The notes beneath the pieces are model-generated. The model made no database searches. It was not told the origin of the DNA and saw only the letters and a program-made list of their open reading frames with translations. Position numbers and translations under genes: made by a program. DNA of 7,350 nt from Escherichia coli. Its GTDB lineage: Bacteria > Pseudomonadota > Gammaproteobacteria > Enterobacterales > Enterobacteriaceae. Every line of letters begins with the position of its first letter. The stretch's first letter is position 1. Shown here in pieces: positions 796-5,645 of this stretch. Location: NCBI RefSeq assembly GCF_003334385.1, contig NZ_QOWN01000072.1; one strand, given 5' to 3'.

Positions 796-1094
796 ACTTT
801 AAAAAGGGTGGCAGAGCAGTCACGGAGTAGAACTGATGCCACCAAATACTACACATGGGTATTGTGGCGGGGCTGTCACTTAAGCGTATGGTCAACCTGA
901 CGACCCGGTGCATTTTCTGGAGCAATGGAGGAAGCCCCAGCCATACTTACCGCCGCGCCATTTCGCGGACTGCCACAACCGGAAGTGCACGGTCGAAGAA
1001 ATTTAACGACAAGCCTTATATGCAAAGGAATCTCGCCGTGCGCTTTCGTGTTGTGTGCCTGCTTTTAACCACGTCAGGCGAGGTGGTTTCCGTC

Positions 1095-1321: not shown

Positions 1322-1768
1322 ATGGACCGGGATGATATTCTTGACAGGGTTTTATATGGTTATTTTCTTGAACAACTATTCTCTGTAGCGACTGGTCGTC
1401 TCGATAAACTTTTCTCAGTGGTGAGTATTATCCTCGGTTCATCTGTCATTGGTGGATTTATTCCTGAAGTTTCTGGAGTTCTCATTGTTGTGATAGCAAC
1501 CGTTCAAACGATTTACGGATTCGGACAAAAGTCAGGTAACGCAATGAGAAAATCCGCAGAATATCTGCAGCTTTATGATGATGCAGAAAAATATTCCGAT
1601 TCGGAATTGAAAATGCAGTTAAAGCTCCTGGAAAAAACAGATGATAATATTTGGTCGTCGCTTAAAGATATCGCAATCTTAAAAACCCAGATCAAAATAG
1701 GAATCTCCGTAGAACAACAAGAGAAACTGTCTGCAAAATCCAAATTGATGCGATTCCTTTGTGGTTAG
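1322..1768 (+). CDS. membrane protein with two predicted TM helices; SieB-like superinfection-exclusion protein by position and topology
   Basis: ORF track 1322..1768 (148 aa). Hydrophobic hairpin LFSVVSIILGSSVIGGFIPEVSGVLIVVIATVQTIYGF followed by a charged, coiled C-terminus. Transcribed opposite to the neighbouring early genes, as sieB is in Rac. AGGTGA lies 10 nt upstream of the ATG. Family assignment is not verified. Confidence 0.6.
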   Translation: MDRDDILDRVLYGYFLEQLFSVATGRLDKLFSVVSIILGSSVIGGFIPEVSGVLIVVIATVQTIYGFGQKSGNAMRKSAEYLQLYDDAEKYSDSELKMQLKLLEKTDDNIWSSLKDIAILKTQIKIGISVEQQEKLSAKSKLMRFLCG

Positions 1769-2196: not shown

Positions 2197-2238
2197 ACAA
2201 TAGCACTGCTATTTTATTCTGTAAATAGTAATGCTATT
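2197..2238 (-). promoter_or_regulatory. OL/pL-like unit: two operator palindromes (ATAGCA-N-TGCTAT type) overlapping a leftward promoter
   Basis: Site A aatagcactgctatt (2199-2213) is a perfect 15-bp palindrome. Site B aatagtaatgctatt (2224-2238) has one mismatch. Centres are 25 bp apart. On the minus strand, -35 TTTACA (plus 2225-2220), a 17-nt spacer and -10 TATTGT (plus 2202-2197) overlap the sites. Same half-sites and geometry as the OR region. Confidence 0.45.
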
Positions 2239-2254
2239 GTTTTTTGGAGGTAAG

Positions 2255-2278
2255 AAAAAAAACCACCCGAAGGTGGTT
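2255..2278 (-). terminator. rho-independent terminator ending the repressor-antitoxin-toxin operon
   Basis: Minus-strand RNA forms AACCACC-UUCG-GGUGGUU (7-bp stem, UUCG tetraloop; plus 2261-2278) followed by a U-tract (plus A-run 2255-2262). Sits 15 nt downstream of the toxin stop codon. Confidence 0.75.
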
Positions 2279-2292
2279 GTTGGTAGGAATGA

Positions 2293-2583
2293 TTAACAGC
2301 TTTTGTTTGGATACTGCCTTCGTGAGTGAACTACATTTACGATCTCGATGTTAGATGCTGTTACTCGGTAAAGTATTATGTAGTTAGGATGGGTCACTAT
2401 CTCACGAAGGCCTAGAGCTCTTTCGCTTGGTGGATACAGGTAAGGGTGTTCAGTAAGTGACAAAACTGATGTTTCAATGCGTATTTTTAGTCTACGTGCA
2501 GCGGGAGGGTTTTCCTTGGCAATATAGGCTACGATCTGACGCAAATCATCACGCGCAGAAGGTAGCCATAAAATGGGCAGCAT
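2293..2583 (-). CDS. parE: type II toxin, RelE/ParE family (ParE-like), 96 aa
   Basis: ORF track 2293..2583 (-). Translation MLPILWLPSARDDLRQIVAYIAKENPPAARRLKIRIETSVLSLTEHPYLYPPSE...GLREIVTHPNYIILYRVTASNIEIVNVVHSRRQYP matches the ParE/RelE pattern from memory. Its ATG overlaps the antitoxin stop (TAATG). Resembles parE of the prophage paaR-paaA-parE systems; paralog number cannot be determined. Confidence 0.85.
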   Translation of the reverse strand: MLPILWLPSARDDLRQIVAYIAKENPPAARRLKIRIETSVLSLTEHPYLYPPSERALGLREIVTHPNYIILYRVTASNIEIVNVVHSRRQYPNKSC

Positions 2584-2774
2584 TACTCACTCCTGTTCGT
2601 CGAAGCTATTTGCGCAATAAGGTTTTCCATTTCAGCCATTACTTCGTCATGCGGAATTGCAGGACGGGGGTCTGCGAGGCTTGCTGCCACTTTGGTGCGT
2701 AACCATTCGTTATAGCTGTTTTCTTGTTCGATTGTTTCAAATTCTGAAATTATCGGGGAAAGGACTGTACTCAT
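2583..2774 (-). CDS. paaA: small antitoxin (63 aa), PaaA-like partner of the ParE toxin
   Basis: ORF track 2583..2774 (-). Lies immediately upstream of, and is translationally coupled to, the ParE-family toxin. GAGGAGG SD 7 nt before the ATG at 2774. Acidic 63-aa protein, the size I recall for PaaA2. Assignment rests on context and length, not a search. Confidence 0.7.
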   Translation of the reverse strand: MSTVLSPIISEFETIEQENSYNEWLRTKVAASLADPRPAIPHDEVMAEMENLIAQIASTNRSE

Positions 2775-2791
2775 GTTCTAACCTCCTCAGA

Positions 2792-3292
2792 TTAGGCGCG
2801 ACGACCTTTTTGCGCCTCTAGCCACCGCGCAACGGTTTCTTCAATTGATTCTTTTTTCTCCTTCATTTCCTTAAGCATTTTCTCTTTGTCTTCTTTTGGG
2901 AAAGCCCTGAACGTCTGGATCAAATCTCGCTCTATAGGTTCTATATTAAACGGAAGTTCGTTTTCCGATTGTTCCATCTCTGCGGGTAAAGCGACAACAT
3001 TATCCTGCTGCAGTTCTTGGGGGTACATCCTTACAATTCGTAACAAGTCTGCCATATCTGGTCTAATTGACTCAGGCGGAACTTGTAGCAACCCAGCGAA
3101 CTTGATAACAGCCTCTAGATTTAAAGGTGTCTGACCATTTAGATAATGGCTTACTGCCCCTTGTGTCGAAAAACCCAGAATTTCTGCCGCACGCTCTTGG
3201 GTTAACCCAAGTTGAGTTTTTTTCGTCGTCCAGATTTCTTTCAGTCTCTGGGCGGCTTGCAGGTCGATCTCTGACAGGGGTTTTCTTTTCAT
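2792..3292 (-). CDS. paaR: HTH (XRE/Cro-CI family) transcriptional repressor, 166 aa; candidate prophage immunity repressor and regulator of the toxin-antitoxin operon (PaaR/RacR-like)
   Basis: ORF track 2792..3292 (-). N-terminal HTH LGLTQERAAEILGFSTQGAVSHYLNG. No LexA/S24 peptidase-like C-terminus. Divergent from the ydaS/ydaT pair across an operator-containing spacer. Stop lies 17 nt before the antitoxin start. Confidence 0.85.
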   Translation of the reverse strand: MKRKPLSEIDLQAAQRLKEIWTTKKTQLGLTQERAAEILGFSTQGAVSHYLNGQTPLNLEAVIKFAGLLQVPPESIRPDMADLLRIVRMYPQELQQDNVVALPAEMEQSENELPFNIEPIERDLIQTFRAFPKEDKEKMLKEMKEKKESIEETVARWLEAQKGRRA

Positions 3293-3399
3293 ACCTTCAA
3301 TTCTAATAAGATTATTAATCTCTTTGAAATAGCGGTGCTATTTACCTTTAAAAATAACAATGCTATTAATATTCATGGTCACATAACATGAGGTGAACA
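3293..3399. promoter_or_regulatory. OR-like divergent promoter-operator region between the repressor and ydaS
   Basis: Operator 1 aatagcggtgctatt (3328-3342) and operator 2 aataacaatgctatt (3353-3367), centres 25 bp apart. Rightward pR-like promoter: -35 TTTACC (3341-3346), 17-nt spacer, -10 TATTAA (3364-3369). The leftward repressor promoter could not be placed; GAAGG abuts the repressor ATG, so the mRNA may be short-leadered. Confidence 0.5.
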
Positions 3400-3663
3400 A
3401 TGAATCTTGGAGAATATTTGCATCATTCCCGTATAACCCAGAAAGATTTTGCTGAAATTGTTGGGGTAACCCAAGGGATGGTAAGCCATGTTATTACTGG
3501 ACGGGCGAAACTTACGGGGGGGAAAGTTTTACGCTGGTGTGAAGCAACAGGGTGGGTAGTGACCCCGCACGAGATTGATAGCAGTACTTACCCCAACCCA
3601 ACCGATGGCATACCTGTTGACTATCAGGCTAACACACAACCCACGCTGGGAGTTGATTCATGA
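3400..3663 (+). CDS. ydaS: Cro-like HTH protein YdaS (87 aa)
   Basis: ORF track 3400..3663. Motif GVTQGMVSHVITGRAKLTGGKVLRWCEATGWVV matches YdaS/Cro-like proteins paired with YdaT in Rac-type prophages. GAGGTG SD at 3390-3395. Stop overlaps the ydaT start (ATGA). Confidence 0.8.
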   Translation: MNLGEYLHHSRITQKDFAEIVGVTQGMVSHVITGRAKLTGGKVLRWCEATGWVVTPHEIDSSTYPNPTDGIPVDYQANTQPTLGVDS

Positions 3664-4085
3664 AAATCAAGCATGAACACATCCGCATGGCGATGAATGT
3701 CTGGGCGCATCCGGACGGCGAAAAAGTACCGGCTGCGAAAATTACCAAAGCGTATTTCGAGCTGGGAATGACGTTCCCGGAACTGTATGACGACAGCCAT
3801 CCGGAAGCCCTGGCCCGTAATACCCAGAAAATTTTCCGCTGGGTGGAGAAGGACACCCCTGATGCTGTTGAAAAAATTCAGGCGCTGTTACCGGCGATCG
3901 AAAAGGCGATGCCGCCTTTGCTGGTGGCCCGTATGCGCAGTCACAGTTCTGAATATTACCGGGAGATCGTCGAACGACGGGATCGGCTGGTGAAAGATGT
4001 GGATGATTTTGTCGCAGCGGCGATCGCCTGGGGCACCCTGACTAACAGTGGTGGTCAGCCTGGTAATGCTGTTGTTGTGCATTGA
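3660..4085 (+). CDS. ydaT: YdaT-family protein (141 aa), the toxic / CII-equivalent partner of YdaS
   Basis: ORF track 3660..4085. Starts MKIKHEHI and is 141 aa, matching my recollection of E. coli Rac YdaT. GGGAG SD 8 nt upstream. A Chi octamer GCTGGTGG lies at 3920-3927. Confidence 0.85.
   Translation: MKIKHEHIRMAMNVWAHPDGEKVPAAKITKAYFELGMTFPELYDDSHPEALARNTQKIFRWVEKDTPDAVEKIQALLPAIEKAMPPLLVARMRSHSSEYYREIVERRDRLVKDVDDFVAAAIAWGTLTNSGGQPGNAVVVH
3920..3927 (+). other. Chi octamer GCTGGTGG (single copy, inside ydaT)
   Basis: Exact plus-strand match to 5'-GCTGGTGG-3' at 3920-3927. No reverse-complement copy was found in the window. Confidence 0.5.
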
Positions 4086-5191: not shown

Positions 5192-5645
5192 ACAGCAAAT
5201 CCGGCTGGTCTGCCGTCAGTGCATGGACCGCTGCCGGGCGGGTGAAACGTGGCCCCCAGACCTGGCTGAGTTTGTTGCACTGATTTCGGAGAGTGGGGCA
5301 AATCCATTTGGTCTTACGGTGGATGCAGTGATGGAAGAGTACCGGCGCTGGCGCAATGAATCCTGGCGATACGACGGGAGTGATAAATACCCGTGGCCAC
5401 AGCCTGTGCTGTACCACATCTGCCTCGAAATGCGTACCAGAGGGATTGAGCGCCAGATGACGCAGGGTGAGTTAAAACGACTTGCGGAACGGCAACTGAC
5501 GAAATGGGCAAAGCATGTTGGTAACGGGATGAGTGTTCCGCCAGTGCGACGACAACTGGAAGGGGCGAAACACCCGCAAGGGCCAACGCCAATTGAACGG
5601 CTGAAACAGGAATACGAACGCCGGAAGGCAGCTGGTTTTATTTGA
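4983..5645 (+). CDS. replication protein, lambda-P-like helicase loader (220 aa as drawn; start uncertain)
   Basis: ORF track 4983..5645. Segments WPPDLAEFVALISE, KYPWPQPVLYHI, ELKRLAERQL and SVPPVRRQLE align with lambda P as I remember it. ATG 4983 has the best SD (AGGGGG, 6 nt) but overlaps the O-like gene by 209 nt. Alternative starts are ATG 5103 (weak SD) and ATG 5184 (ATGACTGA overlap with the O stop). Confidence 0.75.
   Translation: MQHQVARHHGQFRKSGQHANSGNVTTDLSATETAWKLWELMGEVYSNRWTQKNGAAPSKLWIAQIGAMTEQQIRLVCRQCMDRCRAGETWPPDLAEFVALISESGANPFGLTVDAVMEEYRRWRNESWRYDGSDKYPWPQPVLYHICLEMRTRGIERQMTQGELKRLAERQLTKWAKHVGNGMSVPPVRRQLEGAKHPQGPTPIERLKQEYERRKAAGFI

Follow-up and report, generated by a model that had tools for sequence, protein, structure and literature searches.

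Paired palindromes around a repressor operon as probable operators of a lambdoid lysogeny switch in an Escherichia coli prophage

On contig NZ_QOWN01000072.1 of the Escherichia coli assembly GCF_003334385.1, a stretch of 7,350 nucleotides (hereafter the window, meaning the whole of the DNA that was analysed) carries a short operon, opened by the gene of a 166-residue repressor (2792-3292, minus strand), that is bracketed by two pairs of related palindromes. This arrangement raises the question of which protein reads the palindromes and what would be controlled through them. A preliminary description, made from the letters of the sequence, had likened the layout to the OL/pL and OR/pR regions of a lambda-like switch and regarded the palindrome as the probable repressor operator. 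Our results suggest that this proposal is correct: with a probability that we put at roughly 85%, the four palindromes act as operators in the lysogeny switch of a lambdoid prophage, because they travel with a λ-CI-type DNA-binding domain into eight loci and are absent from five heteroimmune ones. The window itself matches a prophage of E. coli strain JNEC-KY176 at 100% and represents the immunity region of a lambdoid E. coli prophage.

Four palindromes and the predicted promoters that they overlap

The pattern AATAGCA-N-TGCTATT occurs four times in the window with at most one mismatch, as two pairs of 25 bp from centre to centre, exactly at the coordinates first reported. The left pair is formed by OL1 (2199-2213, AATAGCACTGCTATT), a perfect palindrome and the left operator closest to the start of the leftward promoter, and by the second left operator, OL2 (2224-2238, AATAGTAATGCTATT), 25 bp from it; the right pair is formed by OR2 (3328-3342, AATAGCGGTGCTATT), whose centre lies at −43 relative to the ATG of the repressor gene, and by OR1 (3353-3367, AATAACAATGCTATT), none of the four being assigned to a strand. 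Allowing two mismatches returned the same four sites and none besides, compared with an expectation of 0.03 from dinucleotide shuffles of the window. In view of the AT-rich motif and of the low G+C content of the right-hand gap (28%), the two local segments were also shuffled separately, and against these AT-rich segments alone the probability of even one site with at most one mismatch was about 5e-5 or less. Because the pattern had been derived from the very sites that this local test counts, two independent tests were added. In the first, a weight matrix built from 24 sites of six other loci, with the window sites left out, placed the four palindromes at ranks 1-4 of 7,336 positions, with scores from 19.8 (OL2) to 22.5 (OL1, the maximum in the window; OR1 scored 22.2), the next best position reaching 8.6. 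In the second, the pattern derived from the window gave 21 matches in 53 kb of independent related loci versus 0.21 expected. These matches, and the arrangement shared by eight loci, establish the conservation in related prophages that the preliminary description had pointed to as a check.

Among close E. coli prophages of the same immunity type, the arms AATAG/CTATT are unchanged throughout and the spacers and inner bases drift, OR2 having the most variable inner bases and the outer arms of OL1 showing no variation at all. The whole OL unit is itself near-palindromic (2192-2214 versus 2223-2245, 87% complementary). Owing to this near-symmetry, an extended −10 (TGcTATTGT, 2232-2240) also faces inward, that is, rightward, toward the terminator of the operon and antisense to its toxin gene parE; it was rejected as an antisense promoter, having no −35 and no conservation in relatives. 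An Rfam scan gave no match in the operator regions.

Each pair of sites is built into a predicted promoter. The leftward early promoter PL (2197-2225, minus strand), found by a promoter scan, has its −35 TTTACA at 2225..2220, a 17-nt spacer, a TG at 2205..2204 and its −10 TATTGT at 2202..2197; the final two bases of OL2 are the start of this −35, a layout that recurs in 7 other PL units, and a half-site of OL1 is the extended −10. The rightward early promoter PR (3341-3369, plus strand) is laid out in the same manner, with a −35 TTTACC (3341-3346), a 17-nt spacer, a TG (3361-3362) and a −10 TATTAA (3364-3369), and is supported by the TG extension and by conservation in relatives, the layout being kept in 8 PR units. 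OR1 spans the spacer of PR and provides the extended −10, and OR2 overlaps the −35 of PR at one end and adjoins, at the other, the −35 of a PRM-like repressor promoter, also found by the promoter scan (3300-3328, minus strand; weak −35 TTCAAA at 3328..3323, 17-nt spacer, −10 TAGAAT at 3305..3300). The elements described earlier, namely one site adjoining a TTTAC(A/C) −35 and the other overlapping a TATT-type −10 after a 17-nt spacer, pointing outward, are therefore present on both sides of the operon.

A single geometry holds in all 15 promoter-operator units that were laid out in reading direction. The last two T's of the upstream site begin the −35 (TT-TACA or TT-GACA), and the TGCTATT half of the downstream site contributes the TGn together with the start of the −10. 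The TT(T/G)AC −35 fixes the outward direction in 15 of 15 units. Since the sites are spaced by 24-26 bp, the promoter spacer is 16-18 nt, and it is 19 nt in the one unit with a spacing of 27 bp.

On the repressor side, 7 nt separate the end of the −10 TAGAAT from the ATG at 3292, no usable Shine-Dalgarno is present, and the spacing from −10 to ATG is 6-7 nt in all eight aligned loci; the repressor mRNA is therefore predicted to be leaderless. The λ cI mRNA is leaderless as well, and the operator centres stand almost identically relative to the repressor start in both systems, at −20/−43/−68 in the window and at −19/−42/−66 from the cI ATG for the annotated λ OR3/OR2/OR1. A leaderless mRNA was also documented for paaR2, the repressor gene of prophage CP-933P, by 5′RACE and N-terminal sequencing (PMC8630535). 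Apparently leaderless repressor starts have been misplaced by gene callers in two of the related loci, designated L008 (4001-4031) and L011 (1860-1882): the former protein is N-terminally extended (MISKTIRMTTMKRK…) and the latter truncated, its likely true start being MSRKMTEDDL, 6 nt after a TATGAT −10.

A chimeric repressor and the loci that share the palindromes

Residues 2-82 of the repressor match the N-terminal domain (NTD) of λ CI, including the basic KKKPL-type arm (phmmer, 1lmb, E=1.6e-9). The AlphaFold model has five helices and a mean predicted local distance difference test score (pLDDT) of 77, rising to ~90 in the NTD, and its ten best PDB matches in Foldseek are all λ CI NTDs (template modelling score 0.83-0.93, root-mean-square deviation 1.1-1.5 Å). 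The DNA-binding domain with its N-terminal arm (1-90) is followed by a disordered linker (93-112) and by a helical hairpin tail (119-165) that resembles the end of PaaR2; the last 44 residues (123-166) align with PaaR2 at 50% identity, and the alignment extends nowhere else. Comparison of the repressor with the structures of the PaaR2 NTD (7NKV, 8C3K) gave no match. The repressor is therefore chimeric, with a DNA-binding domain of the λ CI type joined to a tail of the PaaR2 type.

The recognition-helix stretch TQGAVSHYLN is nearly invariant among homologues, down to ~47% overall identity and across architectures that comprise proteins of 147-166 residues, proteins of 243-255 residues with a second, inserted helix-turn-helix (HTH) domain, and one protein with an S24 domain. 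In the second kind (P0013-P0023, 243-255 residues; for example L003, 4001-4735), the additional HTH is inserted between the λ-CI-like domain and the PaaR2-like tail. A distant relative of the repressor, P0033, carries PF00717. A protein search of a phage collection with the repressor gave no full-length match, only matches at the level of the NTD.

We compared eight distinct and distant loci whose repressors share this recognition helix, with 47-79% identity and with varied C-termini and cargo. All eight carry one pair of sites, 24-26 bp apart, in the gap between the cro and repressor genes, and another, 24-27 bp apart, immediately beyond the operon of the repressor. Counted from the stop codon of the repressor gene, this other pair is found at +62 to ~+2,200 nt, varying with the cargo, which is none, PaaA/ParE, HipA_2/DUF3037, two unknown open reading frames (ORFs) or HigB/HigA. 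The slot between the repressor gene and OL (L003, 4787-6360; L005, 4612-5339; L013, 4093-4841; window, 2293-2774) looks like an exchangeable site for toxin or defence cargo and has the same position as λ rexAB, the window carrying paaA-parE there. In contrast, five heteroimmune loci (CP-933P, K-12 Rac, Rac-SA53, a Stx2 phage and a form with an S24 domain; 24 kb) gave 0 matches at up to 2 mismatches.

In the Salmonella locus L005, the outer AATA/TATT bases, the two-plus-two layout and the recognition helix are conserved, and the inner bases differ. Its sites are at 3926-3965 and 5438-5477 (for example AATACTCAGACTATT), and its repressor has the N-terminal arm MNKKQL versus MKRKSL. The N-terminal arm of these repressors may read the central operator bases, as in λ CI.

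The comparison with CP-933P locates the palindromes within a mosaic. The immunity region of this prophage (CP-933P / Sp12 of E. coli O157:H7) comprises paaR2-paaA2-parE2, the promoters PRM, PR and PL, OR and OL, and ydaS-ydaT (Jurenas et al. 2021, PMC8630535), PaaR2, YdaS and YdaT being the analogues of CI, Cro and CII. PaaR2 and YdaS both footprint on the paaR2-ydaS gap, and each represses PR, PRM and the PL located beyond parE2, the last ~100-fold; at low levels PaaR2 stimulates PRM, and the locus is bistable (PMC8630535). Its operators are 18-bp repeats with the half-site GTTTAGTAA, and three OR operators and four inverted repeats have been described (PMC8630535). The locus was fetched by a published primer sequence. 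At the DNA level, the window is 96% identical to CP-933P over 2030-2187, ending 12 bp before the left palindrome. No identity exists over 2188-2312 or over 2864-3648, the latter segment comprising the repressor NTD, the right palindromes and cro; identity resumes within parE and paaA and in the 3′-terminal part of the repressor gene and is 96% from 3649 on. Since the palindromes occur only in segments that are not shared with CP-933P, they belong to the immunity-specific pieces of the mosaic.

The two prophages agree in gene order and orientation, in the terminator ahead of PL (the PL of the window being positionally equivalent to PL933P), in a repressor that has no S24 domain, in the flanking DNA, and in YdaT, PaaA and ParE (89%, 71% and 64% identical). 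They differ in the repressor DNA-binding domain, which is unrelated to that of PaaR2, in their Cro analogues, only 28% identical, and in their operators, AATAGCA-N-TGCTATT with two strong sites per side in the window versus repeats of the GTTTAGTAA type. The repressor of the window is accordingly not an orthologue of PaaR2 acting on GTTTAGTAA-type repeats, and no DNA homology exists across the operator regions. The different DNA-binding domain, Cro and operators make the window a heteroimmune sister of CP-933P. The homology to λ CI, the co-occurrence of the palindromes with the DNA-binding domain and the repression of the equivalent CP-933P promoters (PMC8630535) support the palindrome as the probable repressor operator.

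Which protein reads the palindromes

Several observations weigh against this reading. PR was not called by the promoter scan at its threshold, because its −10 has no final T, and its elements were read from the sequence. The candidate third right-hand site OR3 (3305-3319, no strand, AATAAGATTATTAAT), 23 bp from OR2 and within the PRM spacer, is degenerate and weak in the window, with a matrix score of only 5.3 (rank 7 of 7,336), and the matrix shows no evident equivalent in L007 or L011; at the equivalent position of L003, L005, L008, L013 and L014 it scores 9.3-10.7 (rank 2-6), and the candidate is conserved among close relatives, so 3305-3319 is assigned only tentatively as a third right-hand operator. 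A third left-hand site, sought upstream of OL2 (2239-2265), was not found. Pfam detects HTH_3 and HTH_31 only in the repressor, with no S24 peptidase domain, and RecA-driven cleavage is not expected of a repressor without an S24/LexA-type C-terminal domain. Cooperativity and OL-OR looping are suggested solely by the 44-residue tail shared with PaaR2, and the distance between OL and OR is not conserved among the loci (~0.6 to 3 kb). Full-text searching of the literature for the motif turned up nothing but unrelated work; a further search, for paaR1/paaA1/parE1, returned no usable sequence or operator data. Finally, in all of the loci examined the Cro-like protein and the repressor both vary together with the sites, so that this comparison cannot say which of them binds.

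This last point leads to the alternative that survives best, in which the palindromes serve the Cro/YdaS-like regulator only (87 residues; 3400-3663, plus strand, divergent from the repressor gene) and the 166-residue repressor reads something else. The Cro-like protein has a matching HTH motif and follows the sites as well as the repressor does, with 44-83% identity among the loci that have the same operators versus 28% to CP-933P YdaS. A locus that might have separated the two proteins, the S24-bearing distant relative L010 (34% identity, λ-type Cro), shows no clear sites and is therefore unusable for telling repressor binding from Cro binding. However, the recognition helices of the two proteins are nearly the same (TQGAVSHY in the repressor versus TQGMVSHV), PR and PL are overlain by no second repeated motif, and lysogeny upkeep requires repressor action at both promoters. 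We therefore consider it very unlikely that the sites belong to the Cro-like protein alone. Because the recognition helices are almost identical, it probably binds the same sites as the repressor, just as 434 repressor and Cro read the same sites. No PDB relative of the Cro-like protein is found by sequence. In λ and in CP-933P, too, both regulators use one operator region (PMC8630535).

Less likely still is that the repeats are duplicated promoter modules (−35, extended −10 and AT-rich upstream elements) kept for RNA polymerase. Every site does overlap a promoter element, TGCTATT contains the extended −10 TGnTAT, and the regions are AT-rich (28% G+C at OR). Against this stands base conservation beyond the promoter hexamers: positions 1-4 of the half-site (AATA) are essentially invariant across 60 half-sites, and the promoter-distal AATA, invariant in 30 of 30 sites, lies outside any hexamer, which argues for contact by a protein and against mere promoter conservation. 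Furthermore, the sites are dyad-symmetric, chance is excluded even against local composition, and heteroimmune prophages with equivalent promoters at the same positions do not have them.

The bracketing of an operon that holds a toxin-antitoxin pair could also suggest that the sites are autoregulatory operators of the PaaA2-ParE2-like complex, as in classical type II toxin-antitoxin systems. This has very little to recommend it, since the same arrangement is found where no such pair exists (L007, L008, L011) or where the cargo is HipA_2/DUF3037 or HigBA, since PaaA2 was reported to have no DNA-binding domain (PMC8630535), and since CP-933P has homologous PaaA2/ParE2 and none of these sites. 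Just as hard to credit is binding by YdaT or a host factor: YdaT also binds in the racR-ydaS intergenic region of Rac (PMC11879457), but the YdaT of the window is a close homologue of that of CP-933P, which does not have these palindromes, a separate YdaT box is already present at 3653-3670, and a host factor would not follow the prophage immunity type.

The proposed switch and its place among related prophages

The gene content agrees with an assignment of the palindromes to the lysogeny switch. To their left lie the integrase, excisionase and exonuclease genes, dicB and a DUF1391 gene, and to their right O/P-like replication genes. The leftward part that PL would transcribe also holds the DicF antisense small RNA near dicB (806-857, minus strand; Rfam RF00039, 62 bits), and a 148-residue ORF of PHROG 6315 (1322-1768, plus strand) lies on the opposite strand inside this operon, at the position of sieB in K-12 Rac. 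The divergent repressor and cro-like genes are separated by a gap of 107 bp, which holds the OR sites, and the cro-like ATG at 3400 is preceded by a Shine-Dalgarno GAGGTG (3390-3395). The operon has the CP-933P-type three-component order of regulator, PaaA2-family antitoxin and ParE2-family toxin: after the repressor gene come the cargo genes for a 63-residue PaaA2-like antitoxin (2583-2774, minus strand; PDB 3zbe, E=1.7e-22; RelB-family antitoxin in NCBIfam) and for a 96-residue ParE2-like toxin (2293-2583, minus strand; PDB 5cw7_B, E=5.7e-35). It is closed by an intrinsic terminator (2261-2278, minus strand; 7-bp stem and T-run in a terminator scan), conserved in relatives, immediately ahead of OL/PL. 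To the right of cro, the ydaT gene (3660-4085, plus strand) encodes a CII-like activator according to PHROG, and its start codon is spanned by a YdaT box (3653-3670, no strand, TTGATTCATGAAAATCAA), an exact match to the TTGATT-N6-AATCAA site defined in PMC9986795 and PMC11879457. As the DNA becomes homologous to CP-933P again at 3649, the immunity module ends on its right side at the binding site of the CII-like activator YdaT, a PRE analogue. Gene order, mosaic position, co-occurrence and geometry thus bear out the comparison with OL/pL and OR/pR with which this analysis started.

From these elements, a switch may be proposed. Dimers of the 166-residue repressor would bind OR1 and OR2 through the λ-CI-type HTH and block PR, which would drive the cro-like gene, ydaT and the replication genes; dimers at OL1 and OL2 would block PL, which would drive the DUF1391 gene, DicF, dicB, exo, xis and int. 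Because operators and promoters use the same bases, bound repressor would exclude RNA polymerase directly. OR2, at −43, adjoins the weak −35 of PRM, and repressor bound there would probably stimulate its own promoter. In λ CI, E34 and D38 contact σ during PRM activation; every aligned homologue has E or D at the corresponding positions, which makes it plausible that repressor at OR2 would activate PRM. The weak third site (3305-3319) would permit PRM to be shut off at high repressor levels or by Cro, and competition of the Cro-like protein for the repressor sites could make the switch bistable. YdaT, bound at its box, would raise the synthesis of repressor by way of a PRE-like promoter. The repressor transcript would also carry the genes of the antitoxin and the toxin and would end at the terminator just before OL. 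PaaR2 has been reported to octamerise, and the PaaR2-like tail of the repressor would mediate cooperativity or OL-OR looping.

This design resembles that of λ in the homologous repressor NTD with its N-terminal arm, in palindromic operators ~24 bp apart and in the position of the operators. Unlike λ, the repressor of the window lacks an S24/LexA-type C-terminal domain and has a different recognition helix, the operators have a different sequence with a conserved core of 15 bp instead of 17 bp, and only two OL sites are clear. In addition, the Cro of the window is a YdaS-type HTH protein and not a member of the λ Cro fold family, YdaT takes the role of CII, and no N/nut system is evident in the window. 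The closest DNA-binding domains in sequenced phages are those of Stx2-converting phage CI (for example Lyz12581Vzw) and of the 'DicA' of Rac-SA53, with ~54% identity over the NTD. Their operators, ATAG-N5-CTAT, are also ~25 bp apart and beside a YdaS-like cro, whereas their recognition helices (TQGAVSQL and SQGTVSQY) and the inner and outer operator bases differ from those of the window, and the Stx2-phage CI has a LexA-type C-terminal domain. K-12 Rac (RacR/YdaS/YdaT) is syntenic with the window and has a conserved left flank that ends at the same point, but it is without toxin-antitoxin cargo and has its own repeats, of TAGGC/GCCTA type, at the OL position and again in the racR-ydaS gap. RacR was considered as a homologue of the repressor and rejected (E=3.7, no detectable similarity). 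Therefore, the window, CP-933P and Rac are three heteroimmune prophages with one scaffold and three operator sets.

The design of the switch has precedents in λ and CP-933P. What appears to be uncharacterised is the operator sequence, together with the chimeric repressor and the immunity group. Among 5,426 complete E. coli genomes, 72 carry the immunity-specific segment, strains of O104:H4 and O145:H28 included, and 4,229 carry its flanks. Taken together, these observations permit a wider reading, which we offer as speculative and consider somewhat less probable than its failure. Here the segment would represent an immunity group that is independent of SOS and uncharacterised, present in ~1.3% of complete E. 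coli genomes (O104:H4 and O145:H28 among them), in which a λ-CI DNA-binding and σ-contact domain is fused to a PaaR2 oligomerisation tail, oligomers would loop the OL and OR pairs 1.1 kb apart, the looped operon, driven by the repressor, would offer a slot for interchangeable cargo (ParE/PaaA, HipA_2/DUF3037, HigBA) whose expression is locked to the lysogenic state, and the N-terminal arm would set the inner operator bases and thereby give rise to new immunity specificities.

Our understanding of lysogeny switches is unchanged by this finding, which is an ordinary instance of a well-known design. It provides a precise and testable map of operators and promoters for one immunity type of Rac/CP-933P-like prophages, extending the sole experimentally studied example, CP-933P, and the operator map predicts mutual immunity among prophages, in a type that is carried by outbreak lineages (O104:H4, O145:H28). 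In this family, exchange affects the DNA-binding domain of the repressor together with the operators and cro, as a single module, and leaves the flanks, YdaT and the oligomerisation tail in place.

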